Source of the DNA: an uncultured Rikenellaceae bacterium
GTDB lineage: Bacteria; Bacteroidota; Bacteroidia; Bacteroidales; VadinHA17
Direction of reading: 5' to 3'
NCBI GenBank assembly: GCA_964446825.1
Contig: CAYUQR010000004.1
Span: 22,828-86,827 of the forward strand
DNA: 64,000 nt
Part shown: piece after piece, positions 2,841 to 49,876 of the stretch
How positions within the stretch are numbered: the stretch's first letter is position 1
How the letters are laid out: each line of letters opens with the position of its first letter
Notes under the pieces: generated by a model
What the model saw: only the letters and a program-made list of their open reading frames with translations
What the model was told of the DNA's origin: nothing
Databases searched by the model: none
Made by a program: the position numbers and the translations under genes

Positions 2841-2864
2841 ATAAACATATGTTCATTATCTTTG
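2841..2864 (+). promoter_or_regulatory. Palindromic operator ATAAAC-ATAT-GTTCAT followed by -7 element TATCTTTG
   Basis: Lies between TTG (2834) and TAnnTTTG (2857), upstream of a DUF134 gene; recurs five more times. Confidence 0.75.
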
Positions 2865-2887
2865 TAGTGAACTATTGCTCATAATAT

Positions 2888-3472
2888 ATGTCACCACGAC
2901 CCATAAAACTCAGAAAAATAAGCAATCCCCCGTTAGTATCGGGATTTAAACCATATGGGGCAAAAGACACTGACAAAGATCCGGAGGTTGTTTTTCTTCA
3001 ATATGAAGAATACGAAGCAATACGGCTTTGTGATTATGAAAAGCTGAATCACCTCCATGCTTCTGAAATAATGAATGTTTCGAGGCCTACTCTTACCAGG
3101 ATCTATGCAAAAGCCAGAGAAAAAATGGCTGAAGCGATAGTTCTTGGGAAGCAACTGATTATTGAGGGAGGGAAAATTTATTTCGACAGCGAATGGTTTT
3201 CTTGTAAAACCTGCGGCTGCTTTTTTAATAATCCTGAAAAACAAGATGATAATAAAGAATGTCCTCTCTGTAACAGTAAGGATATTATAATTTGCGAGGA
3301 ATTTATATATGAAGATGAAGAATCTTTTTCAAGGTGCCACGATATTTGTGTCTGTCCTGTATGCGGATTTGAAAAACCTCATGGATTCAGAATTCCATGC
3401 AGAAACGAAATATGCCCTGAATGTCATCAGCATCTTATAAGGAAAGGAAGTCTTCACACTAAAAACATCTAA
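2888..3472 (+). CDS. DUF134 (UPF0251) DNA-binding protein with two C-terminal Cys-rich zinc-ribbon-like domains
   Basis: MSPRPIKLRKI, EEYEAIRLCDY, MNVSRPTLTRIY HTH; CKTC..CPLC and CVCPVC..CPEC. Confidence 0.9.
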   Translation: MSPRPIKLRKISNPPLVSGFKPYGAKDTDKDPEVVFLQYEEYEAIRLCDYEKLNHLHASEIMNVSRPTLTRIYAKAREKMAEAIVLGKQLIIEGGKIYFDSEWFSCKTCGCFFNNPEKQDDNKECPLCNSKDIIICEEFIYEDEESFSRCHDICVCPVCGFEKPHGFRIPCRNEICPECHQHLIRKGSLHTKNI

Positions 3473-3473
3473 T

Positions 3474-3794
3474 ATGAAAACAGCAATAACAAGTACCGGA
3501 AACACTCTTGAGAGTAAACTGGACCAGCGTTTTGGACGCTGTGCATATTTTGTCATTTATGATACGGAAACAACTGGAATGGAATTCATTCCAAACCACA
3601 GCAAAGATGCCCAGGAAGGAGCAGGTCCTGCAGCAGTGCAACTTGTTGCTTCGCGTGATGTCAGGAAAATAATATCAGGCGAATTTGGCATTAAGATAAA
3701 ATCGTTGCTTGACAGACTAAAAATACAGATGATTGTGCTGAAAGAACCTGAAAAAACCATAAATGAGATCATTGAAATGTTAAACAAAAAATAG
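3474..3794 (+). CDS. NifB/NifX-family (dinitrogenase FeMo-co domain) protein
   Basis: LDQRFGRCAYFVIYD, GAGPAAVQL, IISGEFG. Confidence 0.85.
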   Translation: MKTAITSTGNTLESKLDQRFGRCAYFVIYDTETTGMEFIPNHSKDAQEGAGPAAVQLVASRDVRKIISGEFGIKIKSLLDRLKIQMIVLKEPEKTINEIIEMLNKK

Positions 3795-3801
3795 ATAAAA
3801 G

Positions 3802-3984
3802 ATGCCACAAATTAATGGAACAGGCCCGGAAGGGAAAGGTCCGAAAACCGGTCGCGGACTTGGAAAATGCACGAAGCATTCTCCTGATGAGTTGCTTACC
3901 AGATTAGGAAAAGGTCAGGGAAAGCGACGGAAAACCGGTGGAGGAAAAGGAGAGGGAAAACGCTTAAAAAGCGATATGAAGTAG
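3802..3984 (+). CDS. DUF5320-like Gly/Lys/Arg-rich small protein
   Basis: MPQINGTGPEGKGPKTGRGLGKC; paralog at 17009..17188. Confidence 0.75.
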   Translation: MPQINGTGPEGKGPKTGRGLGKCTKHSPDELLTRLGKGQGKRRKTGGGKGEGKRLKSDMK

Positions 3985-4009
3985 AGCGAGGTCTCAGACC
4001 TCGCTCTAC
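3981..4009. repeat. Perfect 14-bp inverted repeat (REP-like)
   Basis: GTAGAGCGAGGTCT-C-AGACCTCGCTCTAC overlapping the stop codon. Confidence 0.75.
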
Positions 4010-4048
4010 AATAACAAATTAATTTTATTCATTAATAGAAAAATCATT

Positions 4049-4387
4049 ATGAAAAAACGTATTGCCATCCCATTGGAGAATGGGATATTATGCTCACATT
4101 TTGGTCATTGTCAGCAATTCGCAATTGTAGATGCTGAAAATAACTCGATATCAGGCGAGACATTAGTCACACCCCCGCCCCATGAACCCGGATTGCTGCC
4201 TGCCTGGCTGGCAGAAAAAGGAGTGACGGATGTTATTGCAGGTGGTATGGGACAACGTGCCATAAATCTCTTTAACAATCAAAAAATAAATGTATTTGTT
4301 GGTGCACAGATTAAGAATTATACGGATCTGGCAAATGATCTTATAAATGGCAGTCTTGTTGCCGGTGCAAATTATTGCGATCATTAA
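4049..4387 (+). CDS. NifB/NifX-family protein
   Basis: CSHFGHCQQF, PPHEPGLLP, IAGGMGQRA, ANYCDH. Confidence 0.9.
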   Translation: MKKRIAIPLENGILCSHFGHCQQFAIVDAENNSISGETLVTPPPHEPGLLPAWLAEKGVTDVIAGGMGQRAINLFNNQKINVFVGAQIKNYTDLANDLINGSLVAGANYCDH

Positions 4388-4399
4388 TCAGAGAGTATC

Positions 4400-5251
4400 A
4401 TGATATCAGATCACCGATGCTTCTTCTGCTTTACTAAGGCTTTTGAAAGGTTACTTGCTAAAGAGAATATTACCAACGAAGCAAAAAATTCTTTCACCAG
4501 GGATATGATTACTTTGTATCATACTAAATGGGATGAGCTTTATTCACCCGAATTCTCGCGCGAGCTTCATATCATATTAAGAAGCTATACGAATAATCCC
4601 GACCCGTACAAAGAAGAGAAAAGAGTGAACAACGATCAGGCATTGAATTTAATTTCTGAGTCTGAAAAGCTTGTTAATCAATCTGATGACCCTTTCCGAA
4701 CTGCCCTGAGAATAGCAATTGCAGGAAATATTATAGATTTTGCGGCGAATGATAATTTTAACATTCTGGTAACTATCGAAAAAGCTCTGAATTCAGGTTT
4801 TGCAATTGATCATTCAAGGCAACTTAAGAAAGAACTGGAAAAAGCCAGGTCTGTTTTATATCTTGGAGATAATGCCGGCGAAATAGTATTCGATAAACTT
4901 TTTATTGAAAAAATAAAACACCCGAATCTTACTTATGTGGTCAGAGGAGGACCTGTTATCAACGATGCCACCATGGAAGATGCCGAATATACAGGGATGA
5001 ACAAGATAACCAGAGTAATCTCAAGTGAGTATGACGCCCCTTCCACAATTGTTCATAAGTCAGGAAAATTATTCCAGGAATACTTCAGTAACGCCGACCT
5101 TATAATATCAAAAGGACAGGGCAATCTTGAAGGGTTGCTTCCATTAAACGATAAAAGGATATATTTTCTTTTAATGGTTAAATGCAATGTAATTGCTGAA
5201 CTACTCAAAGTTAATAAAGACGATTTAGTTGTTTACAATACTTCCGGTTAA
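4400..5251 (+). CDS. DUF89/ARMT1-like damage-control phosphatase
   Basis: CFFCF, IAGNIIDF, LGDNAGEIVFD, PVINDAT, ISKGQGNLEGL. Confidence 0.9.
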   Translation: MISDHRCFFCFTKAFERLLAKENITNEAKNSFTRDMITLYHTKWDELYSPEFSRELHIILRSYTNNPDPYKEEKRVNNDQALNLISESEKLVNQSDDPFRTALRIAIAGNIIDFAANDNFNILVTIEKALNSGFAIDHSRQLKKELEKARSVLYLGDNAGEIVFDKLFIEKIKHPNLTYVVRGGPVINDATMEDAEYTGMNKITRVISSEYDAPSTIVHKSGKLFQEYFSNADLIISKGQGNLEGLLPLNDKRIYFLLMVKCNVIAELLKVNKDDLVVYNTSG

Positions 5252-5286
5252 AGAGTAATTCAAAAGATTCAAATATAAATTTAAGC

Positions 5287-6231
5287 ATGATAAGTTTCGG
5301 ACCTGTGCCATCAAGAAGATTAGGAAGAAGCCTGGGAATAAACAATATTGTGACCCCAAAAATCTGTTCTTATAATTGTGTCTATTGCCAGGTTGGAAAG
5401 ACTACTAAAAAAAGTGCTGAAAGACAGGTATTTTTTAGACCTGAAGTAATTTTCAGAAATGTCGAGAAACATCTTAAAAAACTGAAGCCTGAGAATCATC
5501 CCGATTTTCTGACATTTGTTTCAAATGGAGAACCTACTCTTGATATAAACCTGTCAACTTCTATTGAATTATTAAAAAAATTAAACATCCCGATAGCAAT
5601 CATAACTAATGCTTCAATGATCTTTCATAAATCTGTCAGAGATGACCTTCAGCTTGTAGATTGGGTATCTCTTAAAATGGATGCCGGGGACAATGATACA
5701 TGGCAGCGAATTAACCGTCCCTTCCCCGGACTAGAGTTTAAGGAAATAATTGAGAATATACAGATATTTGCCAGTGAGTATAAAGGTACATTATGCACAG
5801 AAACCATGCTCGTTGATGGATTGAATGATAAACTAAAGAATCTGACAACCCTGTCGGAAATGATAAAACGGATTAATCCCTGGAAGGCATACATTGCAAT
5901 TCCTACAAGGCCTCCGGCTGAGAAATCGGTTAATCCGCCGGATGTAAAAATACTGAATCATGCATGGCAGATTTTTAATAATCTGGGTATCAATTCAGAA
6001 TTGCTGACTGGTTTTGAAGGGATTGTAACTGATTTAACTGGTAATATATATGAGGATATACTCAACATTACTGCAGTTCATCCTTTGAGAGAAGATTCAA
6101 TGCTTAACCTGCTACACAATAACAATGCTGATCTTCAGATAATTAACTCTCTTATCAGACAACGACTTATAAGGTCAGTAAAATACTTGGGGCATACATA
6201 TTATTTAAGGGAATATCATATCAATACTTAA
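5287..6231 (+). CDS. Radical SAM protein (COG0731-like)
   Basis: FGPVPSRRLGRSLG, CSYNCVYCQ, NGEPTL. Confidence 0.9.
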   Translation: MISFGPVPSRRLGRSLGINNIVTPKICSYNCVYCQVGKTTKKSAERQVFFRPEVIFRNVEKHLKKLKPENHPDFLTFVSNGEPTLDINLSTSIELLKKLNIPIAIITNASMIFHKSVRDDLQLVDWVSLKMDAGDNDTWQRINRPFPGLEFKEIIENIQIFASEYKGTLCTETMLVDGLNDKLKNLTTLSEMIKRINPWKAYIAIPTRPPAEKSVNPPDVKILNHAWQIFNNLGINSELLTGFEGIVTDLTGNIYEDILNITAVHPLREDSMLNLLHNNNADLQIINSLIRQRLIRSVKYLGHTYYLREYHINT

Positions 6232-6235
6232 TATC

Positions 6236-6754
6236 ATGGTCACACCTATTATCCTTTACGGGTCCTCGATACTCAGGAAACCTTCAGCTGAAGTTACATG
6301 GGATGATAATATACAGGAATTAAATGAAATGCTTTTTGATACTCTTAAAAAAGCAGAAGGTATTGGACTGGCAGCCCCTCAGATAAGTTTTTTAAAAAGA
6401 GCATTTGTTATTGATACCACTCCTGTTGTAGCAGATGATATAACAATTGAAAAATTTGAGGGGATCTTTCTTAATCCTCAGATAATAGACAGAAGCAGCG
6501 AGCCAGAAATCTTTAGGGAAGGTTGCCTTAGTTTCCCGGGGATATATGAAGATATATACAGACCAGGCAAAATCCTGGTAAAGTATCAGGATTTATCATT
6601 CAATACTATTGAAGAAGAAATGGATGGACTAAAAGCCAGGATATTTCAGCATGAGTTCGATCATTTATCGGGCATTCTCTTTATTGATAAATTAAGTATC
6701 ATAAGAAGAAAATTATTAACTGGAAAATTAAACAGGATTAAAAAGTTAAGATAA
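6236..6754 (+). CDS. def: Peptide deformylase
   Basis: GIGLAAPQ, EGCLS, QHEFDH motifs. Confidence 0.95.
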   Translation: MVTPIILYGSSILRKPSAEVTWDDNIQELNEMLFDTLKKAEGIGLAAPQISFLKRAFVIDTTPVVADDITIEKFEGIFLNPQIIDRSSEPEIFREGCLSFPGIYEDIYRPGKILVKYQDLSFNTIEEEMDGLKARIFQHEFDHLSGILFIDKLSIIRRKLLTGKLNRIKKLR

Positions 6755-6760
6755 ATAAAG

Positions 6761-7204
6761 ATGGAAAAAATCAAAATCGGCATAATAATCTGCGATAGAT
6801 ACCGAACCTGCACCGGAGGAAAGTGTTTCAGGGCCGCTGCTAAAAGAGAAGGCGCATTTTCAATATATGAAAACATGGAACTGGAGATTGCTGCTTTTAC
6901 AACCTGTGGAGGCTGCCCTGGCGGAAATATAGAATATGCACCTGAAGAGATGAAGAAAAATGGGGTTACACATATTCATTTTGCGACAGGATTCATCGTT
7001 GGCTATCCACCCTGCCCATACATGGAACATTTTAAAAAGTTCATCCCGGAAAAATATGGGATGAAGGTAATTATCGGAACACATCCAATTCCTCAAAAAT
7101 ATTATATCACGCATCATAACCTGGACACATGGAATAATAAATTTCTTCAGGAGTCGGTTAAACCAACTCTTGCAGATGAATCAACCCGTCTCAGATATGA
7201 TTAA
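6761..7204 (+). CDS. CGGC domain protein
   Basis: CDRYRTCTGGKC, TCGGCPG, GYPPCP, IGTH. Confidence 0.85.
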   Translation: MEKIKIGIIICDRYRTCTGGKCFRAAAKREGAFSIYENMELEIAAFTTCGGCPGGNIEYAPEEMKKNGVTHIHFATGFIVGYPPCPYMEHFKKFIPEKYGMKVIIGTHPIPQKYYITHHNLDTWNNKFLQESVKPTLADESTRLRYD

Positions 7205-8075
7205 AATTGCAATAGCCAGCGGAAAAGGAGGAACTGGGAAGACCTTTATTTCAACCAATATTTTCTATACAGTCTTTCAAACCAATTACAGGGCAGAACT
7301 TGTTGATTGTGATGCTGAAGCTCCAAATGCCGCTGCATTCTTCAATGCTGAAGAAACTGCAAAATTTGAAGTCACTCAGCAAGTACCGGTAATTAATACC
7401 GACATATGCACTTTTTGCGGCAAATGCCATGAATACTGTAACTACAATGCAATTTTTATATTGCCTCCGATGAAAATAATTAATGTCATCGAAGATCTAT
7501 GCCATGCTTGTGGGGCATGCAGTGTTGCCTGTAAATTCGGAGCAATAACAGAAAAGCCGGTTTCACTGGGCCAGGTAACCACTTTTTCGCTGAACAACTT
7601 TAACAGGATTCATGAAGCCCGAATAAATATTGGAGTTATGTCGCCTGTAAGTGTAATAAAAGCTGCAATAAAATCTACTGATATTCAATCAGATATTATA
7701 ATACTCGATTCCCCGCCAGGCACTTCATGCCCGTTCGTGCAAACGGTAGCAGCAGCTGATTATGTTATACTGGTCACAGAACCTACACCCTTCGGACTGA
7801 GTGACCTCAAACAGAGTGTTGAGACACTCAGGACTATTGAAAAACCTTTTGGTGTAATTATTAACCGGTCCGGATTGGGCGATACGAATGTTCAAAAGTA
7901 TCTTCTGCAGGAAGATATTTCACTGCTTCTTGAAATACCATTTAAAAAAGAGACTGCAGTATTATGTTCCAATGGCCTTATTGTATCTGAATACGATATC
8001 TTTCTTGCTCAACAGCTTCTGACAGTAACTGAAAACATTATGGCAAACCATGGAAATAGCAATAATCAGCGGTAA
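7197..8075 (+). CDS. MinD-superfamily P-loop ATPase with inserted ferredoxin domain (COG1149)
   Basis: ASGKGGTGKT, two CxxCxxC motifs, DSPPGTSCP, TEPTPFG; likely start ATG 7197. Confidence 0.9.
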   Translation: MIKIAIASGKGGTGKTFISTNIFYTVFQTNYRAELVDCDAEAPNAAAFFNAEETAKFEVTQQVPVINTDICTFCGKCHEYCNYNAIFILPPMKIINVIEDLCHACGACSVACKFGAITEKPVSLGQVTTFSLNNFNRIHEARINIGVMSPVSVIKAAIKSTDIQSDIIILDSPPGTSCPFVQTVAAADYVILVTEPTPFGLSDLKQSVETLRTIEKPFGVIINRSGLGDTNVQKYLLQEDISLLLEIPFKKETAVLCSNGLIVSEYDIFLAQQLLTVTENIMANHGNSNNQR

Positions 8076-8910
8076 AGGAGGAACCGGAAAATCAAGTATA
8101 AGCGCAGCATTTGCTACACTGAACGGCAAAGTTGTACTTGCCGACTGTGATGTGGACGCAGCAAACCTGTATCTTCTTTTTAATCCTTCAAACGAAGAAG
8201 AAGAGACTTACATTGCGGGAAAGAAAGCAGTTATAGATTATAATGTTTGTAATAGTTGCGGAATATGTGTGGATTATTGCAGGTTTGATGCAATTTCTCT
8301 TAAAGCTGGCAAGATTGTGATATCTGAAATATCATGTGACGGATGTATTCTTTGCTCTCGTATATGTCCGGAGAATGCAATCAACATGATCTCAAAAGAT
8401 AAAAGCCGGATGTATTCAGGTACTTTCCGTAATGGGAAAATGGTTTATGGACGTCTCGCTCCGGGTGAGGAAAATTCAGGCAAGCTTGTAAATATGGTGC
8501 GCGACAAGGCAAAAATATTATCCGAAGAAAGCGGGTTGGAAACCATCATACTCGATGGCCCCCCTGGCATTGGCTGTCCCGTAATTTCGACCATTACCGG
8601 AGTAGATAAGGTTGTAATCGTAACTGAACCAACTATTTCAGGATTACACGATATGGAAAGAACGGTCGGGATTGTTCAAAAATTCAGCCTGCCAACTTAT
8701 GTAATAATTAATAAGTTTGATCTTAACACTTCCATAATGTATCAGATTGAGGAGTGGTGTAAAGAAAGAAATATCGTTGTAGCAGGGAAGCTGCCTTTTG
8801 ATACTAAAATTGTAGAGGCAATGGTTCATGGCAAAAGCATTAATGAATATAAGCCCGATTTAAAGATCAGTAAGGATATTCAAGAGATCTGGAATAAAAT
8901 TATTAACTGA
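8050..8910 (+). CDS. Second COG1149 MinD-like ATPase with ferredoxin insertion
   Basis: ISGKGGTGKS, DCDVDAANL, CNSCGIC, CDGCILC, DGPPGIGCP. Confidence 0.9.
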   Translation: MEIAIISGKGGTGKSSISAAFATLNGKVVLADCDVDAANLYLLFNPSNEEEETYIAGKKAVIDYNVCNSCGICVDYCRFDAISLKAGKIVISEISCDGCILCSRICPENAINMISKDKSRMYSGTFRNGKMVYGRLAPGEENSGKLVNMVRDKAKILSEESGLETIILDGPPGIGCPVISTITGVDKVVIVTEPTISGLHDMERTVGIVQKFSLPTYVIINKFDLNTSIMYQIEEWCKERNIVVAGKLPFDTKIVEAMVHGKSINEYKPDLKISKDIQEIWNKIIN

Positions 8911-14525: not shown

Positions 14526-14870
14526 CTACTCTCCTTTTTCTAATTCTCCGAGTCGTTTTTCAATATCTTCCTGCGAGCGGCTGAGTGCATCTGCCTGAGA
14601 TTTAAGCAGTTTAACTTCATCTTCTTTACTCATCGAAGGCATCCAGGGATAGCCCTTAAAGGATCCAGTATAAGCTCCGCCAAAGTTCCGGCCCCAGCCG
14701 AACCCCCTGCCTCTGCCCATACCCATACCTCTTCCATAGCCAAATCCCCTGCCCATTCCACCTCCAACTCCTTTTGTAAATCCCGGGGAATCAAATCCCT
14801 CACAATATCCTAATGCTCTTCCGGTTCTGAAACCTTGTCCCATTGGTCCGGTACGATCTCCTCTTGGCAT
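14526..14870 (-). CDS. DUF5320 domain protein (Gly/Arg-rich, C-terminal coiled coil)
   Basis: MPRGDRTGPMGQG.RTGRALGYC; true start 14870, because the longer ORF overlaps the promoter. Confidence 0.85.
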   Translation of the reverse strand: MPRGDRTGPMGQGFRTGRALGYCEGFDSPGFTKGVGGGMGRGFGYGRGMGMGRGRGFGWGRNFGGAYTGSFKGYPWMPSMSKEDEVKLLKSQADALSRSQEDIEKRLGELEKGE

Positions 14871-14978: not shown

Positions 14979-14994
14979 ATGAACATATGTTCAC
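14979..14994. promoter_or_regulatory. Operator ATGAAC-ATAT-GTTCAC
   Basis: Next to minus-strand -7 element TATCTTTG (14962..14969), upstream of the DUF5320 gene. Confidence 0.75.
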
Positions 14995-18159: not shown

Positions 18160-18175
18160 ATGAACAATAGTTCAT
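18160..18175. promoter_or_regulatory. Operator ATGAAC-AATA-GTTCAT
   Basis: Perfect arms, in the divergent intergenic region between MBL and psd. Confidence 0.8.
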
Positions 18176-18241: not shown

Positions 18242-19105
18242 ATGTACATTTATAAAAATTCATACCCGCTTTTATTCCGCCTGGGTATAATTCTGATTAT
18301 CATAAATATATTTATAATATTCATAGCATTCCAGGGTAAGGCTTACCTTATTATACCAACGGTTTCTGTTTTTGCATTTATAAGCACAGTACTTTTTTTC
18401 AGAGTGCCGGAGAGAATAATTGCCAAAAACAATAATCTTGTTTATGCTTCCGCCGATGGCACTGTTGTAGATGTTGAGGAACTGTTCGAAGATGAATATC
18501 TGAATACTTCCTGCACAAAAGTATCCATCTTCATGTCGATGTTCAATATTCATCAAAATATTATACCTGTAAGTGGTAAGATCATATATTATAAGCATCA
18601 CCCGGGAAAATATCTTGTGGCATGGCACCCAAAATCAAGTTTTAAAAATGAACACACATCTATAGTAATTGAGACTAATGACGGCTTAAAACTTATGGTA
18701 CGGCAGATTGCCGGGTTTGTGGCAAGACGTATTATTTGCAATATAAAAGAAAATGATTATGTTGAACAGGGCGAAGAGCTGGGTTTTATTTTGTTCGGTT
18801 CACGGGTTGATATATTTCTTCCGGACAATACTGCGTTAAAAGTTAAAACAGGAGATAAGGTTAAAGCCAATATTAACCCAATTGCCGCGGTCGCTTATAA
18901 AGATACTGAAATAGAGTGCAAATGGTACCCGGTATGTCCTTTGAGAATATTCTACGAACAGGGAAAATTGGATAAAAGCTGGATTGAATTATATTGTAAA
19001 GGAGCATGGCTGAATTGTATAAGATACCAGATGGAAGAAAATGGAGAATATCATCCTGATAATATGATGCCCGACGGTAGTATAAATGATTTATTAACAA
19101 TATAG
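18242..19105 (+). CDS. psd: Phosphatidylserine decarboxylase proenzyme fused to a C-terminal Cys-containing small domain
   Basis: SADGTVV, HQNIIPVSG, RQIAGFVARRI, FGSRVD cleavage motif; extra ~65 aa CKWYPVCP..LYCKG..CIRY..HPD. Confidence 0.85.
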   Translation: MYIYKNSYPLLFRLGIILIIINIFIIFIAFQGKAYLIIPTVSVFAFISTVLFFRVPERIIAKNNNLVYASADGTVVDVEELFEDEYLNTSCTKVSIFMSMFNIHQNIIPVSGKIIYYKHHPGKYLVAWHPKSSFKNEHTSIVIETNDGLKLMVRQIAGFVARRIICNIKENDYVEQGEELGFILFGSRVDIFLPDNTALKVKTGDKVKANINPIAAVAYKDTEIECKWYPVCPLRIFYEQGKLDKSWIELYCKGAWLNCIRYQMEENGEYHPDNMMPDGSINDLLTI

Positions 19106-19119
19106 AAATGATTAAAATT

Positions 19120-19332
19120 ATGGAAAAATATTTAGTTGCATCATCAGGTGATACACTTGATTCAAAAGTAGCCAAAAGATTCGGTCATTCAGGATGCAAA
19201 GCAGGCGATTGCGATGGCGGGCATGGAACAGGAATAGGCATGGGCATGGGACAAAGAGATGGAAGAGTAATGGGCGAAGAAAGAGGAGCAGGAATGGGTA
19301 GCGGCAGAATCAGAGGCGAAAGAGGAAAATGA
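19120..19332 (+). pseudogene. Internally deleted NifB/NifX-family gene
   Basis: N-terminus nearly identical to 27806..28312, then jumps directly to the Gly-rich tail. Confidence 0.8.
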
Positions 19333-20123
19333 AAATTATAATGGATAAAAAAATTGTACATGACCTGGAAAAATGGTTCACCAGCTATGTAATGACATTT
19401 AAATATGACAACAATGAATTACAGCGCAACATAGATATTAAGAGAGAACACACAGAAAGGGTAACTGAAGAAATTATTAATATTGGAAAAAAGCTCGGAT
19501 TAAATGATAATGAGTTGAATCTGGCTGAAATAATTGCCCTGTTTCATGATATTGGCCGGTTTGAACAATATAACCAATATAAAACATTTTCTGACAATAA
19601 ATCGGAGAATCATGCTGAACTGGGGATTAAGATTCTAAAAAAATACAATGTATTGGGCATATTAGATAAAGAAATTCAGAATCTGATTTTATGCTCAATA
19701 AGATATCATAACCGTCCTTCAGTGCCCTTGGAAGAAACAGAAATATGCCTCTTTTATTCCAGGCTTATCCGTGATGCAGATAAACTGGACATCTGGAAAG
19801 TAGTCACCGATTATTATCACAGAAAAAACGGACATCGAAATGTCGCCCTCGAACTTGAATTACCTGACACGCCGGGAATCTCTAAAAAAGTTTATAATGC
19901 ACTCATGAACAGGCAGTTTGTTGAGATGAAACATGTTAAGAACATTAACGATATCAAATTACTCCAGGCAGGATGGATTTATGACATCAACTTTGAACCA
20001 ACATTCTATCTTATTAAAGAACGTCGTTACCTTGAAAAGATCAGGGAGGTATTGCCTGAAACGACTGAAATTAATGAAATTTTCGATTCCATCTTTCGCT
20101 CTTTAAATAGTTACTTTCACTAA
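19329..20123 (+). CDS. HD-domain phosphohydrolase
   Basis: EHTERV, LFHDIGR, IRYHN, RDADKLD. Confidence 0.9.
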   Translation: MKIIMDKKIVHDLEKWFTSYVMTFKYDNNELQRNIDIKREHTERVTEEIINIGKKLGLNDNELNLAEIIALFHDIGRFEQYNQYKTFSDNKSENHAELGIKILKKYNVLGILDKEIQNLILCSIRYHNRPSVPLEETEICLFYSRLIRDADKLDIWKVVTDYYHRKNGHRNVALELELPDTPGISKKVYNALMNRQFVEMKHVKNINDIKLLQAGWIYDINFEPTFYLIKERRYLEKIREVLPETTEINEIFDSIFRSLNSYFH

Positions 20124-27631: not shown

Positions 27632-27647
27632 ATGAACAAATGTTCAT
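27632..27647. promoter_or_regulatory. Operator ATGAAC-AAAT-GTTCAT
   Basis: Perfect arms; 7 bp from the Fur-type box, as at 18130/18160. Confidence 0.8.
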
Positions 27648-27805: not shown

Positions 27806-28312
27806 ATGGAAAAATATTTAGTTGCATCATCAGGTGATACATTGGATTCAAAAGTATCAGGCAGATTCGGTCATTCCGGATATTTCATGATAATTGATCC
27901 GCTTACCATGGAGTATGAAACTTTCACAGGGGTAAGTACTGATGAAGATCAAAACATCGGGAAATTTATTACCCCGGCTGTAAAAAAGGTTATTGTCGGT
28001 AATATCGGTCCGTCATCATACAGCGAGGTATTATCTTACGGCTGTAAAGTTTACCTGTGCCGTAATATGTCTGTTAATGAGGCAGTAAGAAAAGTTAAGA
28101 ATGATGAAGTTCCGATATTGAAAGAGCCGACATTAAAAGATAGTATTCATTCAGCCCGTAAAGCAGGCGACGTCGATGGCGGACGTGGAGCAGGAAGGGG
28201 CATGGGTACCGGACAAAGAGATGGCAGAGGCAGAGGCACGGGTGGAGGACAAGGAAGTGAGATGGGAAGAGGAATGGGTGGTGGAAGAGGCATGGGAAAA
28301 AGAGGTAAATGA
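27806..28312 (+). CDS. NifB/NifX-family protein with Gly/Arg/Met-rich tail
   Basis: RFGHSGYFMIID, VGNIGP, tail GRGAGRGMGTGQRDGRG. Confidence 0.85.
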   Translation: MEKYLVASSGDTLDSKVSGRFGHSGYFMIIDPLTMEYETFTGVSTDEDQNIGKFITPAVKKVIVGNIGPSSYSEVLSYGCKVYLCRNMSVNEAVRKVKNDEVPILKEPTLKDSIHSARKAGDVDGGRGAGRGMGTGQRDGRGRGTGGGQGSEMGRGMGGGRGMGKRGK

Positions 28313-37890: not shown

Positions 37891-38292
37891 TTAGTCAGGA
37901 TTTAGCCTGGTAATATTATCCGAATCGCATTTCCGGCATTGGTCTGCCGGTTTTATGGTAACCATTGTTTCGTGACAATCATCGCACCTATACCAATAAT
38001 CCTCAGTTACATACGTCCCACCCTGAATAATAATTGCTTTCCCTTCCACAAACGCCTTTGCAATATTTTTACGGGCTTTGTCGTATAGTCTCGTAAAAGT
38101 CGGACGTGAAATATTCATCTTTTTTGCAGCCTCTTCCTGTGTAAGATTTTCGTAATCGGCAAGCCTCAAAGCCTCATACTCTTCATACTTTAAATCAACA
38201 GATCCCAGTTCCCGCATCGGAATGCCAAATGGTTTATACCCTTCCATCTGAGGAGGTCTTGTTATTCTTCTATGTCGAATACGGTTGGGCAT
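37891..38292 (-). CDS. DUF134 protein
   Basis: EEYEALRLADY, MNISRPTFTRLY, CDDC..CRKC. Confidence 0.9.
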   Translation of the reverse strand: MPNRIRHRRITRPPQMEGYKPFGIPMRELGSVDLKYEEYEALRLADYENLTQEEAAKKMNISRPTFTRLYDKARKNIAKAFVEGKAIIIQGGTYVTEDYWYRCDDCHETMVTIKPADQCRKCDSDNITRLNPD

Positions 38293-38361: not shown

Positions 38362-38377
38362 ATGCACCAATGTTCAT
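38362..38377. promoter_or_regulatory. Operator ATGCAC-CAAT-GTTCAT
   Basis: One mismatch; upstream of DUF134 gene, near minus-strand -7 TAAATTTG (38346..38353). Confidence 0.7.
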
Positions 38378-45703: not shown

Positions 45704-45982
45704 ATGGAGATTGAGAAAGGGAAAACATATAAATACCTGAGAGAGAAAAGAGAGGTATCCCAGATTGCAAAAGATAAAATGAAACAATTCAGTAAAATGA
45801 AGAAAATAATACTGGATTCGCTTAAGGAGGGAGAGCTTACCGTTGATCAGCTTACGCAAAAAATCAACCTTCCAAAAGATGAAGTTCTATTTTACCTGAT
45901 GTCTTTGATAAAGTATGGTTTTGTGCAGACCGGTTCGATTGATGATATGGATGAATATTTCACTTATAAACTTAAACAATAA
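45704..45982 (+). CDS. Small winged-helix protein
   Basis: IILDSLKEGELTVDQL..EVLFYLMSLIKYGFV; likely start 45704. Confidence 0.65.
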   Translation: MEIEKGKTYKYLREKREVSQIAKDKMKQFSKMKKIILDSLKEGELTVDQLTQKINLPKDEVLFYLMSLIKYGFVQTGSIDDMDEYFTYKLKQ

Positions 45983-47025
45983 TGGCCTCTATAAATCCTG
46001 AATTCGGTAAAGAGTTAACTAAGTATGGGGCATTTGATTTCAACGCATGCTATAACTGTGGTAATTGTACGGCTGTTTGTTCTTTATCAACTGAAGAAGA
46101 TTCATTTCCCAGGGAGATGCTGCGATTAAGTGTACTTGGACTGGAAGATGACATAAAATCATCGCTTAAGCCCTGGCTTTGCTATTATTGCGGCGAGTGT
46201 ACAACTCATTGTCCGCAAAATGCCAATCCCGGCGAATTAATGATGTCACTCAGAAGATGGCTCACATCAGAATATGACTGGACAAAACTATCAGGTTTAT
46301 TATACCGTTCATTCCCTCTTACCCTGATTGCATTTTTAGTTTCAGCTATTGGGATTTTGGCATATAGTATATTAAAGAATTTTAATATGCCGGAAATAAT
46401 GTCATCAGGGCATACTTTTGAAGTTGCTGCCATTGCAGCGGTTTTCGCAATAATCCTAATACCAAACATTGTAAGGATGTGGTGGTTCATTATTTTAAAA
46501 CCAAAGGTTAAGGTTCCTTTATTAAAATATTTTAAAAGTCTGGGGGAATTGATTATCCATATGTTCACACAAAAAAGGACCCTTGGATGCGATGAGAATA
46601 AGCTCAGATGGTTTGAACATTTTATTCTTGTAATAGGCTATTTAGGGTTGCTTTTTACCACAGTCTTTCTCGACTGGTTTTCAAGTACCAATATTTTTGT
46701 AATTGTTCTTGGATATGTGATGAGTATAATAATATTTCTGGTCACTATTGATTTCATGTGGGATCGTCTTAAGAAGAATAAAGAGATAAGCAAGAATTCA
46801 CAACCCTCCGACTGGATGTTCGTTGGATGGTTGTTTTTAATGGGGCTCACAGCATTTTTCGTCAGGTTGTTTATCGATAGCGGATTGCTCGATAATAACA
46901 AATGGCTCTATATCTTTCATATGATAATCCTTGTTCAGTGGGCATTGATAATTGTCCCGTTCGGGAAGTGGACTCATTTTCTGTATCGGTCATTTGCCAT
47001 GTATTTTTCTAAGCTAAAAAGTTAA
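45982..47025 (+). CDS. QmoC-like protein: HdrC-type 2x[4Fe-4S] domain plus membrane heme b domain
   Basis: CYNCGNCTAVC, CYYCGECTTHCP; transmembrane His in RWFEHF, IFHM and PFGKWTH. Confidence 0.85.
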   Translation: MASINPEFGKELTKYGAFDFNACYNCGNCTAVCSLSTEEDSFPREMLRLSVLGLEDDIKSSLKPWLCYYCGECTTHCPQNANPGELMMSLRRWLTSEYDWTKLSGLLYRSFPLTLIAFLVSAIGILAYSILKNFNMPEIMSSGHTFEVAAIAAVFAIILIPNIVRMWWFIILKPKVKVPLLKYFKSLGELIIHMFTQKRTLGCDENKLRWFEHFILVIGYLGLLFTTVFLDWFSSTNIFVIVLGYVMSIIIFLVTIDFMWDRLKKNKEISKNSQPSDWMFVGWLFLMGLTAFFVRLFIDSGLLDNNKWLYIFHMIILVQWALIIVPFGKWTHFLYRSFAMYFSKLKS

Positions 47026-47116: not shown

Positions 47117-47548
47117 ATGGCCAATAAATCAATTATAAGAATTCTGGTTCAGAACGATTTAAAAGTAACTCCTCAAAGAGTTGCCATACTGGAAGTGATT
47201 CTTGCACTTGAAACACATCCTACTGCTGATAATATCACTGAAGTTCTGAGATTTGCTCATCCCAATATCTCTCTAGCCACCATATACAATACTCTTGAAA
47301 CTTTCTCAAAAAAGGGAATAGTACACAAGGTGAGCACTGATAACGATACTACAAGATATGATCCGATAAGTGAAAGGCATCATCATCTTTATTGCCCTGA
47401 ATCGGGTCGTATAGAAGATTTTTACGATGAAGAGCTCAATAAAATACTTGACGATTATCTGATGAAAAAAAATATTCCCAATTTCACTATTGATAATGTC
47501 AGGATACAGATCATGGGGAAATTCACTGACAGGAAAATAAATAAATAA
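47117..47548 (+). CDS. Fur-family regulator (PerR-like)
   Basis: VTPQRVAIL, HPTAD, SLATIYNTL, RYD..HHHLYC. Confidence 0.9.
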   Translation: MANKSIIRILVQNDLKVTPQRVAILEVILALETHPTADNITEVLRFAHPNISLATIYNTLETFSKKGIVHKVSTDNDTTRYDPISERHHHLYCPESGRIEDFYDEELNKILDDYLMKKNIPNFTIDNVRIQIMGKFTDRKINK

Positions 47549-47680
47549 CCATATTAAGTTTTACAATTTAGGATATTGATCATTGATTCAGGATAAAAAA
47601 TAAAAGCAAAGAACTACCCACTGTTGCAGGGGTGAGTTCATGATAATAAGATTTAAAGATAAACTAACATTTAAAGTATT

Positions 47681-48181
47681 ATGGGACAAAAAGGAAGATC
47701 AATTGTAAAAATGGATGTTGATAAGTTAATCAACCTGTTGAACAAAGCATTAGCAGACGAGTGGCTCGCTTATTACCAGTATTGGGTAGGAGCTAAAGTG
47801 GTTAAAGGGCCGATGAAGGATGCGGTCATTTCGGAGCTTACCATTCATGCTACTGAAGAACTTAGTCACGCTGAACTTTTAGTAACCAGAATCATCCAGC
47901 TGGGCGGAACACCAGTTCTGTCGCCTGAAGAGTGGCTCAAGATTACAGGTTGTGGGTATGACCCTCCCCTTGATCATTATGTAGAGAAAATTCTTGATCA
48001 AAACATACAAGGGGAACAGTGCGCTATAAGCTTTTATAGTGGATTGCTCGATATTACAAGAGAGGGTGATCCTGTTACATACAACATAATCCTTACGATT
48101 CTGTCGCAGGAGGTTGAACATGAAGAAGACCTGTCTTCACTGAAAGAGGACCTTGAATTAATGCTTGCAAGAGGGAAGTAA
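47681..48181 (+). CDS. DpsL/bacterioferritin-like protein
   Basis: KALADEWLAYYQYW, EELSHA, GEQCAI, EVEHEEDL. Confidence 0.85.
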   Translation: MGQKGRSIVKMDVDKLINLLNKALADEWLAYYQYWVGAKVVKGPMKDAVISELTIHATEELSHAELLVTRIIQLGGTPVLSPEEWLKITGCGYDPPLDHYVEKILDQNIQGEQCAISFYSGLLDITREGDPVTYNIILTILSQEVEHEEDLSSLKEDLELMLARGK

Positions 48182-48243
48182 TCAGTGATCAGTGATCAGG
48201 AATCAGGAATCAGTGATCAGTAATCAGTAATCGGTAATCTGTA
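48181..48243 (+). repeat. Heptamer tandem repeat (consensus ATCAGTR) x9
   Basis: atcagtg atcagtg atcagga atcagga atcagtg atcagta atcagta atcggta atctgta. Confidence 0.9.
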
Positions 48244-48299
48244 ATTAAGAATTACTGGTTTTTAAAAAAATTGACTATTATTAACTAAAAACAAATATA

Positions 48300-49007
48300 A
48301 TGGAAGAGAATCAGGTAGTTGCCATGCCACGAATTGGCGATAAGGCACCATCATTTAAAGCAGTTACAACGCAGGGAGATATAAATTTTCCTGGCGATTA
48401 TTCCGGAGGCTGGGTAATCCTTTTCAGTCACCCTGCCGATTTCACTCCGGTATGTACATCTGAATTCATGACATTTGCAAGTATGGCAGATAAGTTTGAA
48501 GAAGCCAACTGCAAGCTTGTGGGTCTTTCGGTGGACGGACTTTACAGCCACATTGCATGGTTAAGGACCATCAAAGAAAAAATTGAATATAAGGGGATGA
48601 AAGATGTCGAAGTTAATTTTCCTCTTATTGAAGACATCACAATGGAAGTAGCCAAAAAATACGGAATGATACAACCAGGCGAAAGCAATACCAAAGCTGT
48701 AAGAGCAGTATTCTTCGTTGATCCCAAAGGCATTATCAGGGCAATTATATATTACCCGCTAAGCCTTGGACGTAATTTTGACGAACTATATAGATCCCTG
48801 ATTGCCATGCAGACAGCCGATGCATTTTCTATTGCCACTCCGGCCGACTGGCGTCCGGGTGATGACGTGATTGTTCCTACTGCAGGATCTTGTGGAGTCG
48901 CAAAAGAAAGGATGGAGAAAAAAGAGGAGATGCATTGTTACGATTGGTTTTTCTGTACCAAAAAGCTTGATAAAGATAAGCTATTTAAAACGGTGCTGAA
49001 GAAATAA
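48300..49007 (+). CDS. Peroxiredoxin (Prx6/archaeal-type)
   Basis: HPADFTPVCTSE, GRNFDE, TPADW, C-terminal CYDWFFC. Confidence 0.95.
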   Translation: MEENQVVAMPRIGDKAPSFKAVTTQGDINFPGDYSGGWVILFSHPADFTPVCTSEFMTFASMADKFEEANCKLVGLSVDGLYSHIAWLRTIKEKIEYKGMKDVEVNFPLIEDITMEVAKKYGMIQPGESNTKAVRAVFFVDPKGIIRAIIYYPLSLGRNFDELYRSLIAMQTADAFSIATPADWRPGDDVIVPTAGSCGVAKERMEKKEEMHCYDWFFCTKKLDKDKLFKTVLKK

Positions 49008-49175
49008 TCAAGATTCATTATTGTTCATACCCTGACCGCAAAGTACACACAAGATATATAAATAATACAAAGGGGCTATCATATCAATTGCTTCTTTGCC
49101 AAGTAAATAAATTCCTGGTGAACTTTGCGGTTATTTTTTTGTTCCATAAATACTTTTTCACTTGATACAGACCAT

Positions 49176-49793
49176 ATGAACGAATTTGACATAAAAGCAG
49201 CAGGATGGGATCAGAACCCTATGATCTGGAATCGGGCCAATGCCATTGCCAATGAAATAAAAAGACAGCTGCCATTAAACAACAGAATGACTGCACTGGA
49301 ATTCGGCGCAGGTACGGGAGTAACCAGTTTTATACTTAAGGATTCACTGAAAGAGATCACTTTAATGGATAATTCAAGAGAAATGGTGAAAATAATGGAT
49401 GAGAAAATAAAGGAAACAGGTGTTAAAAATCTTAAAACAGTGAACTTTAATCTTGAACATGAAAACTATAATGTTGCAAAGTTCGATCTTGTTTTTAACC
49501 AGATGGTTCTTCATCACATCACTGACATTCGTGATATCTTAAATAAATTTTTTAATCTTCTGAATCCGGGAGGATTTCTTGCTTTAGCTGACCTGTATCC
49601 TGAAAATGGCTCCTTTCACGGGGAGGGTTTTACCGGTCATAAAGGCTTCGATCCGGCAAAATTGTCAGAATTACTTTCTAAAGCTGGATTCAATAATATA
49701 AGTCACAGGCAGTGTTTTGTCATTAACAAGGAAATATCTGATTCTGTAAAAAAACAATTTAAGGTATTCCTGCTTACAGCTAACCGGCCTTAA
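49176..49793 (+). CDS. Class I SAM-dependent methyltransferase
   Basis: FDIKAAGWD, LEFGAGTG, LHHI, HKGFD; likely start 49176. Confidence 0.85.
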   Translation: MNEFDIKAAGWDQNPMIWNRANAIANEIKRQLPLNNRMTALEFGAGTGVTSFILKDSLKEITLMDNSREMVKIMDEKIKETGVKNLKTVNFNLEHENYNVAKFDLVFNQMVLHHITDIRDILNKFFNLLNPGGFLALADLYPENGSFHGEGFTGHKGFDPAKLSELLSKAGFNNISHRQCFVINKEISDSVKKQFKVFLLTANRP

Positions 49794-49860
49794 GTCTAAA
49801 AAGAGATATAGCGTAAAAAATGATTATTTAGTAAAAATAATCTCTTATTTTATTTGCATT

Positions 49861-49876
49861 ATGAACGTAGGTTCAT
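49861..49876. promoter_or_regulatory. Operator ATGAAC-GTAG-GTTCAT
   Basis: Perfect arms, flanked by TTGCATT and TATCTTT exactly as at 2841. Confidence 0.8.

Follow-up and report, generated by a model that had tools for sequence, protein, structure and literature searches.

A 64,000-nt stretch of a Bacteroidales (VadinHA17) contig (CAYUQR010000004.1, 22,828-86,827; hereafter the window) carries three DUF134 genes and, at six promoters, the palindrome ATGAAC-N4-GTTCAT, raising the question of which protein binds this palindrome and to what effect. The initial annotation had proposed that it is the operator of the DUF134 regulators.

The palindrome and its genes in the window

Exact matches to the palindrome occur three times in the window (18160, 27632 and 49861), where 0.03 are expected. 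When one mismatch was allowed, the six positions of the initial annotation were reproduced (2841, 14979, 18160, 27632, 38362 and 49861) against an expectation of 0.30, and none of 100 shuffled controls contained more than two matches. Up to two mismatches gave 10 matches versus 4.3 expected. Among the four additional ones, that at 2867 is probably a real second site, and a tandem pair like 2841/2867 is also found upstream of the DUF134_a ortholog in another locus (L013), while the three in coding regions (20855, 37174 and 43312) look like chance matches. A position weight matrix built from 89 sites of other Bacteroidales scored the six sites at 21-30 bits, with runners-up at 14.4 and 14.0 bits and a shuffle maximum of 17.3 bits. 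The consensus derived from the collected sites is WWATGAACATATGTTCATWW, and G3 and C6 are almost invariant among these sites; the proposed operator is written WWATGAAC-(A/T)4-GTTCATWW.

The six sites all fall between genes, where they overlap core promoters of the Bacteroidota type, in agreement with their earlier assignment to promoter regions. They precede the three DUF134 genes or operons (3/3, with Pfam-verified neighbours), a DUF5320 gene, a cluster of an MBL-fold hydrolase, a DUF5320-like ORF and feoAB, with psd divergent from it, and an IssA-like NifX-domain gene (Table 1). A random choice of six among the 33 upstream regions in the window would capture the three DUF134 promoters together with P ~0.004. 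The other targets named at the outset, DUF5320, MBL/psd and NifX, were verified by Pfam; the co-transcription of MBL with the DUF5320-like ORF, feoA and feoB can only be presumed, because ~150 bp separates MBL from the next gene.

Table 1 Putative operators and surrounding genes, in window coordinates.
Feature	Position	Strand	Description
Putative operator 1	2841..2856		ATAAACATATGTTCAT; occupies the 20-bp spacer from -33 CTTG to -7 TATCTTTG of the DUF134_a promoter
Candidate operator, second and weaker	2867..2882		GTGAACTATTGCTCAT; 26 bp downstream of operator 1
DUF134_a	2888..3472	+	HTH helix SRPTLTR, Cys4 ribbon, additional Cys-rich C-terminal extension
NifX-like (PF02579) gene	3474..3794	+	Begins 2 nt past DUF134_a
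ORP-like set	4049..8910	+	NifX-like, ARMT1/DUF89, radical SAM, peptide deformylase, CGGC, two MinD-type ATPases with ferredoxin inserts
DUF5320 gene	14526..14870	-	Gly/Arg-rich tract and coiled coil
Putative operator 2	14979..14994		ATGAACATATGTTCAC; DUF5320 ATG 108 bp downstream; -7 box 10 nt downstream
feoB	15047-16765	-	
feoA	16778-17005	-	
DUF5320-like ORF	17009-17188	-	59 aa; after MBL
MBL-fold hydrolase	17341-18120	-	Pfam
Putative operator 3	18160..18175		ATGAACAATAGTTCAT; common to the divergent MBL (39 bp to ATG) and psd promoters
psd	18242-19105	+	Pfam
Gly-rich ORF	19108-19332	+	74 aa; remnant of an IssA-like gene
HD-domain gene	last in the 18242..20123 set	+	Set of psd, Gly-rich remnant and HD
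TonB-dependent receptor	24561-27008	-	
His-rich membrane protein	27110-27478	-	
Putative operator 4	27632..27647		ATGAACAAATGTTCAT; between the His-rich membrane protein/TonB-receptor unit and the IssA-like gene
NifX-domain gene	27806..28312	+	C-terminal Gly/Arg-rich tail; IssA-like iron-sulfur storage type
DUF134_b	37891..38292	-	HTH helix SRPTFTR; Cys4 ribbon, C103, C106, C119 and C122 invariant
Putative operator 5	38362..38377		ATGAACATTGGTGCAT (minus strand); DUF134_b 69 bp downstream
Crp/Fnr genes, Fnr-like	37101-37793, 39635-40327, 40490-41167		N-terminal Cys motifs; one adjoins DUF134_b
Fur-family gene	47117-47548		Beside Dps and peroxiredoxin genes; no palindrome
Putative operator 6	49861..49876		ATGAACGTAGGTTCAT; in the spacer from -33 TTTG to -7 TATCTTTA
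Small Cys-rich membrane protein	49900-50145	+	
DUF134_c	50129-50533	+	Pfam
OsmC-like	50549-50938	+	
Membrane protein with NTPase domain	51042-52778	+	

The NifX-like gene behind DUF134_a is the unfused counterpart of natural DUF134-NifX fusions, and the genes past the following 254-bp gap are a possible continuation of the DUF134_a operon. Similarly, the His-rich membrane protein and the TonB-dependent receptor are possible divergent targets of operator 4. Pfam placed PF02579 (NifX-type) genes at starts 3474, 4049, 27806, 32602 and 36475, and ParA/CbiA plus Fer4 genes at 7170 and 8050. The window therefore contains an ORP/IssA-type gene module, with NifX-type proteins, one of them bearing a Gly/Arg-rich tail, and paired MinD-type ATPases with ferredoxin inserts.

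Conservation of the motif across genomes

The motif was analysed in two sets of loci chosen by DUF134, with 8-20 kb covered around each DUF134 gene: 80 genomes with a DUF134_b relative (73 Bacteroidales loci; 1.19 Mb in total) and 80 far more distant DUF134 loci with GC contents of 26-69%. Enrichment upstream of DUF134 orthologs, the check suggested by the initial annotation, was borne out. With up to two mismatches, the motif was present within 300 bp upstream of the DUF134_b relative in 52/80 genomes. The remaining 28 relatives, including 22/73 from Bacteroidales, lack a site within this distance of their own start, indicating that DUF134 autoregulation is common but not universal; many of these loci have other regulon sites. 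At one mismatch or fewer, the 1.19 Mb contained 109 matches, 95 of them (87%) intergenic, versus 0-18 for each of 25 control palindromes with a permuted half-site. The genes following the motif in this set were the same as in the window (DUF134, 41; DUF5320, 20; MBL, 16; NifX, 6), and each target class retained its own flanks and spacing, as exemplified by the 39-40 bp between the motif and the MBL start. Of the regulon members, DUF5320 is the one retained most constantly from phylum to phylum, and the MBL-fold hydrolase is also a conserved target. Even the deviations from the consensus are kept: the imperfect half GTGCAT of operator 5 in orthologous promoters, and the G/C-containing centre of operator 6 before the same operon in other species.

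A generalised 6-N4-6 palindrome lies within 200 bp upstream of DUF134 in 84/160 loci across both sets, and in most of the remaining loci DUF134 is within an operon with the site at the first gene, often paired 24 bp apart. The density of this palindrome was 2.78 per kb upstream of DUF134 versus 0.137 per kb elsewhere, a 20-fold difference which, together with the permuted-motif controls, lessens but does not remove the concern that the association is partly by design, since the loci were collected around DUF134.

DUF134 as the probable binder, and the alternatives

The three window genes match PF02001 (DUF134/UPF0251) at 83.6, 90.2 and 82.9 bits (cut-off, 27), and the Pfam matches of these 133-194 aa paralogs are limited to DUF134, HTH and zinc-ribbon entries. 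In alignments, a conserved N-terminal RPxRxR...FKPxG segment is followed by a sigma-region-4-like HTH; an AF2 model (pLDDT 82; helices 36-47, 52-58 and 63-83) matched sigma region 4 in Foldseek with an rmsd of 0.7 Å over 49 residues. Four cysteines are invariant in the alignment. The family occurs in archaea as well as bacteria, and the Cys ribbon is absent from some archaeal members and is thus not a universal sensor. All ten of the long members tested were DUF134-NifX-like fusions. Pfam labels DUF134 'unknown function', the best NCBIfam model is a 'hypothetical protein', and neither the literature nor the family libraries searched contain a characterisation of DUF134 or a DNA site for it, as the initial annotation had stated.

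The half-site covaries with the recognition helix among 62 dereplicated genes. The helices SRPTF(T/S)R, SR(Q/A/P)TF(G/A)R, SRQTFGN and SQPTF(H/F)R pair with the half-sites ATGAAC, ATGAGC, ATT(A/G)GC and ATGAAT, respectively. At helix position 7, R corresponds to G at base 3 (100/104) and N to T (20/20); at position 2, R corresponds to C at base 6 (98/98) and Q to T (26/26); and at position 6, T/S/H/F correspond to A at base 5 and G/A to G. Because the helix classes are clades, this covariation represents few independent evolutionary events.

The two covarying arginines align with DeoR arginines reported to contact bases: in B. subtilis, R39 contacts G4 and R34 contacts T12 of the dra-nupC-pdp operator ATTGAAC-AAAA-TTTCAAT, with base contacts in TTGAACA (PMC11229326). 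DeoR is the closest solved HTH (7bhy and 8r7y; rmsd 0.6-0.8 Å), and the DUF134 HTH matches its DNA-binding domain with a phmmer E value of 0.007 (7bhy_A; 38% identity over ~40 residues). Both recognition helices are of the SRPTxSR type (DeoR, ISRPTVSR; DUF134, ISRPTFTR), both operators have the 6-N4-6 form with near-identical TTGAA(C)-type half-sites 4 bp apart, and DeoR is a repressor acting at the promoter. DeoR uses two half-operators, and some DUF134 sites occur in tandem at a distance of 24-26 bp. In contrast to DeoR, which forms tetramers through a large C-terminal sugar-phosphate-binding domain, DUF134 has no such domain but the RPxRxR...FKPxG segment and the Cys4 ribbon, to which some members add a NifX-like domain, and its regulon concerns iron-sulfur handling rather than sugars. 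Since the C-terminal effector domain is absent, DUF134 is a relative of the SorC DNA-binding domain only, not a SorC family member.

Could another protein bind the palindrome? DeoR itself binds TTGAAC-N4 half-sites, unrelated regulators can use the same core, as shown by C. glutamicum RolR of the TetR family, which binds TGAAC-N4-GTTCA (PMC9210681), and our view was limited to 8-20 kb around each DUF134 gene. A SorC/DeoR- or TetR-type regulator that travels with the cluster and is encoded elsewhere, with DUF134 doing something else, is nevertheless improbable: no SorC sugar-binding or TetR_N domain was found by Pfam in the window proteins scanned, DUF134 is the only gene common to all palindrome loci from Bacteroidales to methanogen-like archaea, and a hidden factor would have to have changed its helix in parallel with DUF134, clade for clade. 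Still less probable is binding by one of the three Fnr-like Crp-family regulators, with the placement of DUF134 reflecting a shared redox regulon. With its 5-N4-5 core, TGAAC-N4-GTTCA, the palindrome matches FNR-type boxes in geometry, the window genes bear N-terminal Cys motifs, and such a gene is present in 17/80 loci of the first set; however, it occurs in 0/80 distant palindrome loci and adjoins only 1/109 sites, and the half-site covaries with the DUF134 helix and with nothing else in the loci. Fur, which the initial annotation had named beside Crp/Fnr as a binder that would refute its proposal, also fails to fit: the Fur box is a 19-bp GATAATGATAATCATTATC-like inverted repeat, which WWATGAACATATGTTCATWW does not resemble. 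The Rex operator (TTGTGAA-N4-TTCACAA) was rejected as well, since TGAA/TTCA are 6 bp apart here versus 4 bp, the flanks are A/T rather than TTG/CAA, and no Rex domain was found by Pfam among the window proteins scanned. We give almost no weight to a chance or structural promoter feature (AT-rich spacer, RNA hairpin or terminator) with no dedicated binder. Both the sites and the promoters around them are AT-rich, yet the sites are 20-fold enriched over shuffles and permuted palindromes, keep G3 and C6 almost throughout, and persist in GC-rich genomes (57-61% GC). A stem of 6 bp is insufficient for a terminator, and the site is located upstream of transcription starts.

How DUF134 would act at the site is suggested by promoter position. 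The palindrome overlaps -33/-7 promoters in Bacteroidota, follows TTGACA by 10-11 nt or overlaps the -10 hexamer in sigma-70-type promoters, and lies ~6 nt downstream of the TATA box in archaea. In each lineage, the operator therefore coincides with part of the region from -33 to -7, from -35 to -10 or from TATA to the start, which makes DUF134 a likely repressor. The site position would also allow activation at MBL, unk122 (the His-rich membrane protein) and tRNA-Lys, where the -7 box begins 18 nt past the palindrome: this centres the site near -38, as in class II activated promoters. In addition, a single palindrome is shared by two divergent promoters at each of 18160, 27632 and 38362. We consider it unlikely, however, that DUF134 is an activator or dual regulator at MBL, the His-rich membrane protein and tRNA-Lys, where this reading puts the palindrome upstream of the -33 region, because at its own promoters, of three types, the site overlaps either the -10/-7 element or the start of transcription, an activation surface is not known, and the 39-40 bp MBL spacing puts the site over the -33 element, not beside it.

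The proposed regulon and a possible signal

Taken together, these results make the palindrome the very probable DNA target of DUF134 proteins, and we estimate a probability of about 0.8 that it is the operator of a DUF134 dimer repressing the DUF134 genes and an iron-sulfur set. The regulator-site link, previously drawn from co-location, is supported by computation, through the enrichment, promoter position, conservation before the same genes across species, helix/half-site covariation and similarity to DeoR and its DNA; dimer binding, repression and the signal are what we infer. The dimer would set one HTH, of the sigma-region-4/DeoR type, on each ATGAAC half-site. Since the operator sits inside the core promoter, the bound protein would keep RNA polymerase off, repressing the three DUF134 genes, DUF5320, the MBL(-DUF5320-like-feoAB) unit, psd and the IssA-like NifX-domain gene. 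The three paralogs probably share the six sites, because their recognition helices are the same or nearly the same, although conserved variation at the four central positions and in one half-site may give the paralogs different site preferences.

Our best guess for the signal is the iron-sulfur state of the cell (Fe2+, sulfide-bound iron or cluster species), for which the sensor may be the invariant Cys4 ribbon, a NifX-like domain in a partner or fusion, or both. This is suggested by the four cysteines, the natural fusions and the regulon content, which includes the IssA-like protein, DUF5320, ORP-like MinD-ferredoxin ATPases and feoAB. Fur and DtxR/IdeR likewise act as small dimers that repress from palindromic operators placed over core promoters, are often autoregulated, and control feoAB and iron storage genes; their fold and operator are unrelated to DUF134, for which a metal or cluster ligand is only presumed. 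Similar anaerobe-specific targets, NifX-like (Di-Nase domain) proteins together with MinD-type ATPases that occur in pairs and carry ferredoxin inserts, are found in the orange-protein (ORP) operons of Desulfovibrio vulgaris, activated by the sigma-54 activator OrpR, which senses redox via an iron-sulfur cluster (PMC8359166, PMC6345978). OrpR binds enhancers and activates in concert with sigma-54 and IHF, whereas DUF134 is a small HTH protein with its operator inside promoters of the housekeeping type; no sigma-54 activator was detected by Pfam in the window proteins scanned.

The product of 27806..28312 has the architecture of IssA, the thioferrate iron-sulfur storage protein of Pyrococcus furiosus, with a NifX-type domain and a cationic Gly-rich tail (PMC5524996). 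The literature found on IssA names no regulator for its genes. The IssA homologs of Methanococcus voltae increase together with FeoAB (PMC8516115), which is what one would expect of a shared repressor. DUF134 proteins appear to repress themselves and conserved iron-sulfur handling genes in anaerobic bacteria and archaea.

A six-site palindrome in the window

A pattern search of the window recovered the palindrome ATGAACNNNNGTTCAT three times as an exact match (0.03 expected), six times with up to one mismatch (0.30 expected, and at most two in any shuffle) and ten times with up to two mismatches (4.3 expected). The six-site palindrome is real: the positions found, 2841, 14979, 18160, 27632, 38362 and 49861, are those that the initial annotation had listed with 0-1 mismatch. 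All six sites lie between genes, each with a -7 box downstream toward the gene, confirming their placement in promoter regions. The probability that six random upstream regions, from the 33 in the window, take in all three DUF134 promoters is ~0.004. A terminator or hairpin reading of the palindrome was rejected.

We scored the window with a matrix derived from 89 sites in other Bacteroidales, whose core columns were set by the site-collection procedure, so that its independent information resides in the flanks and centre. The six sites scored 21-30 bits, compared with a shuffle maximum of 17.3, and the next-best scores were 14.4 (within a coding region) and 14.0 (at 2867). The derived consensus, WWATGAAC-ATAT-GTTCATWW, has A/T-only flanks and favours an ATAT centre. 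Among the four matches added at two mismatches, only 2867 appears credible as a site, since it follows 2841 at a distance of 26 bp and the orthologous gene of another species (locus L013) has the same tandem pair in front of it. The matches at 20855, 37174 and 43312, within coding regions, with low or borderline matrix scores and without conservation, were dropped.

Pfam searches bore out the earlier gene calls next to the sites. In addition, a 59-aa ORF absent from the ORF list was found between the MBL-fold gene and feoA, ending 4 nt ahead of the feoA start. It scores above the Pfam cut-off (E 3.9e-10) as the N-terminal half of DUF5320, and the window therefore contains two DUF5320-type genes. 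The NifX-domain gene product carries a C-terminal Gly/Arg-rich tail, an architecture that it shares with IssA, by which Pyrococcus stores iron-sulfur as thioferrate (PMC5524996). Behind 2841, the operon may also take in a further NifX-like gene and a pair of genes for MinD-type ATPases with ferredoxin inserts, the set that encodes the ORP (orange-protein) complex in Desulfovibrio (PMC6345978).

Features of the window, with the palindrome sites next to them
Feature	Position	Strand	Site	Remarks
DUF134_a	2888-3472	+	2841	Pfam
ETF-quinone oxidoreductase gene, then ETF fusion gene	9066-12783	+
DUF5320	14526-14870	-	14979	Pfam
59-aa ORF	17009-17188	-
MBL-fold gene	17341-18120	-	18160	then 59-aa DUF5320-like ORF, feoA, feoB
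psd	18242-19105	+	18160	Pfam
74-aa ORF	19108-19332	+		behind psd
Apparent gene remnants	20305-22010	+
TonB-dependent receptor	24561-27008	-
122-aa His-rich membrane protein	27110-27478	-	27632
NifX-domain gene, IssA-like	27806-28312	+	27632	Pfam
Apparent gene remnants	30674-32511	-
Crp-family regulator	37101-37793	+
DUF134_b	37891-38292	-	38362	Pfam
tRNA-Lys(CTT)	38413-38486	+	38362	35 bp from site
Crp-family regulator	39635-40327	-
Crp-family regulator	40490-41167	-
DsrE-like/TusA/MvhD/HdrA-like/ferredoxin-membrane gene set	41294-47025
Fur-family gene, then Dps/ferritin-like and peroxiredoxin genes	47117-49007	+
DUF134_c	50129-50533	+	49861	Pfam; small Cys-rich membrane protein gene ahead in same operon
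Apparent gene remnants	57234-58378

Several further observations concern the surroundings of the sites. The 74-aa ORF behind psd has the first ~25 residues and the tail in common with the IssA-like protein, with the intervening domain missing, and looks like an internally deleted copy of that gene; the operator regions 18160 and 27632 have ~60 nt of flanking sequence in common. Divergent from the IssA-like gene at 27632 are the His-rich membrane protein gene and then the TonB-dependent receptor gene, and the motif also precedes a TonB receptor gene in locus L014 and the small protein gene in L024. The tRNA-Lys gene lies on the opposite side of site 38362 from DUF134_b, and the DUF134_b orthologs of L003, L008 and L026 likewise have a tRNA gene upstream, a conserved synteny. 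Elsewhere, ETF beta-like and alpha-like parts are fused in one 647-aa gene behind that of the ETF-quinone oxidoreductase, and the apparent remnants include restriction-modification fragments, a split flavin/pyridine-nucleotide oxidoreductase overlapping a methyltransferase, an IS1595-type zinc-ribbon ORF and a xylose isomerase-like C-terminal fragment.

Conservation and covariation with the recognition helix

Using DUF134_b as the query and one genome per species, we collected 80 loci with up to 20 kb of DNA each, mostly from Bacteroidales MAGs, and also from Ignavibacteria, Endomicrobia and two archaea; the closest match, in a Bacteroidales MAG (L001), was 96% identical. In 52 of the 80 loci, the 300 bp ahead of the DUF134 gene contained the motif (<=2 mismatches). 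At <=1 mismatch, the 1.19 Mb of these loci yielded 109 matches, compared with 0-18 for each of 25 control palindromes with permuted half-sites, and 95 of the 109 were intergenic, compared with 14% of the DNA. The genes behind the matches were DUF134 (41), DUF5320 (20), MBL (16), NifX-like (6), thioredoxin reductase-like (5), small Cys-rich membrane protein (3) and ARMT1 (3). Across species, the DUF5320 sites have an ATAT centre, those of the DUF134_c operon a G/C-containing centre between TTTG and TATCTTTG, and those of DUF134_b itself often an imperfect GTGCAT half, while the motif lies 39-40 bp ahead of the MBL start. Since the same genes and class-specific site details recur across species, the predicted regulon is conserved and no peculiarity of the window. 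Two Bacteroidales orthologs (L057 and L058) have no palindrome and carry, ~20-70 bp upstream of the DUF134 start, two copies of a direct repeat, (A)ATGGA(A/G)TTTGACTGCGCCA(A/C)A(A/G)A, which could be the site of a different regulator.

In the few non-Bacteroidales loci of this set, palindromes of this form with a variant sequence lie at -36 to -38 relative to the start of DUF134. Scanning metagenome contigs with a non-Bacteroidales DUF134 consensus provided 80 more loci (GC 26 to 69%); a profile search for distant homologs brought back mainly Bacteroidales proteins already in hand and was used only for a deeper structure-prediction alignment. Of the 160 loci taken together, 84 carry the generalised symmetric palindrome ATKRRY-N4-RYYMAT within 200 bp ahead of DUF134, where its density is 2.78 per kb compared with 0.137 per kb elsewhere. 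In most loci lacking it at DUF134, this gene lies inside an operon and the site precedes the first gene, usually DUF5320, often as a pair 24 bp apart. Tandem operators 24-25 bp apart upstream of DUF5320, which there opens the operon containing DUF134, were observed in a probable archaeal low-GC clade (L081-L112), for example at -552/-528 (L085), -964/-940 (L091) and -1144/-1119 (L098) relative to DUF134, an arrangement that hints at cooperative binding of two DUF134 dimers.

The recognition helices and half-sites fall into matching classes: SRPTF(T/S)R with ATGAAC, also in 57-61% GC genomes; SR(Q/A/P)TF(G/A)R with ATGAGC; SRQTFGN with ATT(A/G)GC; and SQPTF(H/F)R with ATGAAT. We counted this covariation in the 62 DUF134 genes left after dereplication at 90% identity. 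At helix position 7, arginine accompanies G at base 3 in 100 of 104 half-sites and asparagine accompanies T in 20 of 20; arginine at position 2 accompanies C at base 6 in 98 of 98 and glutamine T in 26 of 26. The correlation was not built in, because the search pattern permitted the alternatives equally, and the independent changes behind these counts are few, since the helix classes are clades.

The candidate binder and its probable mode of action

The core palindrome by itself would not identify its protein, because an unrelated TetR regulator in Corynebacterium uses the same core; the identification of DUF134 as the probable binder rests on comparative evidence. The window encodes three Fnr-like Crp-family regulators and one Fur-family protein, the competing binders named in the initial annotation. 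A Crp/Fnr gene is present in none of the 80 distant loci, and Crp/Fnr was rejected as the binder; Rex, Fur and TetR (RolR) were also considered and rejected. The three Crp-family regulators have N-terminal Cys motifs and adjoin the DsrE-like gene set, a neighbourhood repeated in several related loci. The Dps/ferritin-like and peroxiredoxin genes following the Fur-family gene suggest a peroxide-responsive (PerR-like) regulator rather than one of iron uptake, and no palindrome was found at these genes. Taken together, the recurrence of the palindrome before DUF134 genes and a half-site that tracks the recognition helix support the initial interpretation as a predicted DUF134 operator about as far as sequence analysis reaches.

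DUF134 has no solved structure. Its AlphaFold model (pLDDT 82) had no whole-protein PDB match in Foldseek (best E 5e-3, to the MCM zinc-ribbon part); the HTH and ribbon match PDB entries separately only. The HTH can be superposed both on sigma region 4 and on the B. subtilis DeoR DNA-binding domain with operator (7bhy, 8r7y), the latter at 38% identity and an rmsd of 0.6-0.8 A, and DeoR is the sole significant sequence match to DUF134 (E 0.007). The recognition helices are near-identical (DeoR ISRPTVSR, DUF134 ISRPTFTR), whereas the SorC-family effector domain is missing in DUF134, which is therefore not a SorC family member. DeoR binds the operator ATTGAAC-AAAA-TTTCAAT and makes its base contacts in TTGAACA; contacts of R39 with G4 and of R34 with T12 are reported, at limited resolution (PMC11229326). 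The same five-residue spacing separates the arginines at the covarying positions, R63 and R68 in DUF134_b, and the one aligned with DeoR R39 is that covarying with G. DeoR-type base reading by the DUF134 arginines, as we infer from this parallel, would fit the covariation exactly.

A sigma-70 consensus scan was uninformative for Bacteroidota (14 sites, 13.4 expected), and the Bacteroidota -7 box TAnnTTTG was scored in its place. At 2841, 49861, 18160 toward psd and 27632 toward the IssA-like gene, the box immediately follows the palindrome, which occupies the -33/-7 spacer; it lies 9-10 nt past the palindrome for DUF134_b and DUF5320, and 18 nt past it for MBL, the His-rich membrane protein and tRNA-Lys. 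Across the loci, the operator overlaps the core promoter in three promoter types: in the -33/-7 spacer (Bacteroidota), after TTGACA and 10-11 nt with the palindrome centre as the -10 region or behind a TATAAT running into it (sigma-70 type), and ~6 nt behind a TATA box (archaeal). Because of this overlap, the economical reading is that DUF134 on its operator would block the promoter, that is, repression by occlusion, often autoregulatory. Autoregulation would be frequent and not universal: in 28 of the 80 relatives, among them 22 of the 73 Bacteroidales loci, the DUF134 gene itself lacks a site upstream, and many of these loci have sites before DUF5320, MBL or NifX-like genes. At MBL-type promoters activation is conceivable, since the site is centred near -38 there.

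A predicted iron-sulfur regulon

The regulon content, invariant cysteines, IssA-like tails and NifX-like fusions point to the iron-sulfur state as the candidate signal of DUF134. The ribbon, with four invariant cysteines in the alignment, resembles the zinc ribbons of HypA and MCM, and Gly/Arg-rich tails resembling the IssA tail occur on some DUF134 proteins. Each of the ten long representatives of the family that were tested (P0151, P0155, P0174, P0188, P0191, P0207, P0210, P0245, P0271 and P0279) joins DUF134 to a NifX-like (PF02579) domain in a natural fusion, which suggests that this domain serves the DNA-binding part as its sensor partner; in the window, a separate NifX-like gene starts 2 nt behind DUF134_a. 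The families linked in the 80 distant loci include NifX-like (26), MinD-ferredoxin ATPases (25) and DUF5320 (23).

In Desulfovibrio, the ORP genes are under a different regulator, with redox sensing via an iron-sulfur cluster (PMC8359166), the only published control of these iron-sulfur storage and handling genes that we found. In Methanococcus voltae on pyrite, FeoAB and IssA homologs rise together, which the authors called paradoxical (PMC8516115); one shared DUF134 repressor, if present there, would be a simple explanation of this rise. As a tentative overall reading, to which we give roughly one chance in three, DUF134, either by itself or together with a NifX-like domain (fused or as a partner), would be the hitherto missing sensor and regulator of how strict anaerobes of both domains store and traffic iron-sulfur. 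It would read iron-sulfur availability and repress IssA-like, DUF5320, ORP-like ATPase and ferrous iron uptake genes via one operator family, with a two-arginine code (helix position 2 to base 6, position 7 to base 3).

A literature search (DUF134, UPF0251, COG1342, PF02001 and operator sequences), with most subscription journals outside its coverage, found no description of DUF134 function or site, in agreement with the initial annotation, and NCBIfam (June 2026) lists 'hypothetical protein' only. The family comprises 3,785 clusters at 50% identity (E up to 0.001, among 1.84 billion representative proteins), from Bacteroidales to methanogen-like archaea. As a kind of system, an HTH repressor acting on a palindromic operator is ordinary; the novelty lies in the family, in its regulon and in its occurrence throughout both prokaryotic domains. 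For DUF134/UPF0251, widespread and without an assigned function, these results predict where the protein binds DNA and how it probably acts, and they outline a conserved regulon whose other members (DUF5320, NifX-like/IssA-like and ORP-type ATPases) are themselves specific to anaerobes and poorly understood. The helix/half-site covariation offers a specificity code with which regulons could be predicted in uncultured anaerobes by the thousand.
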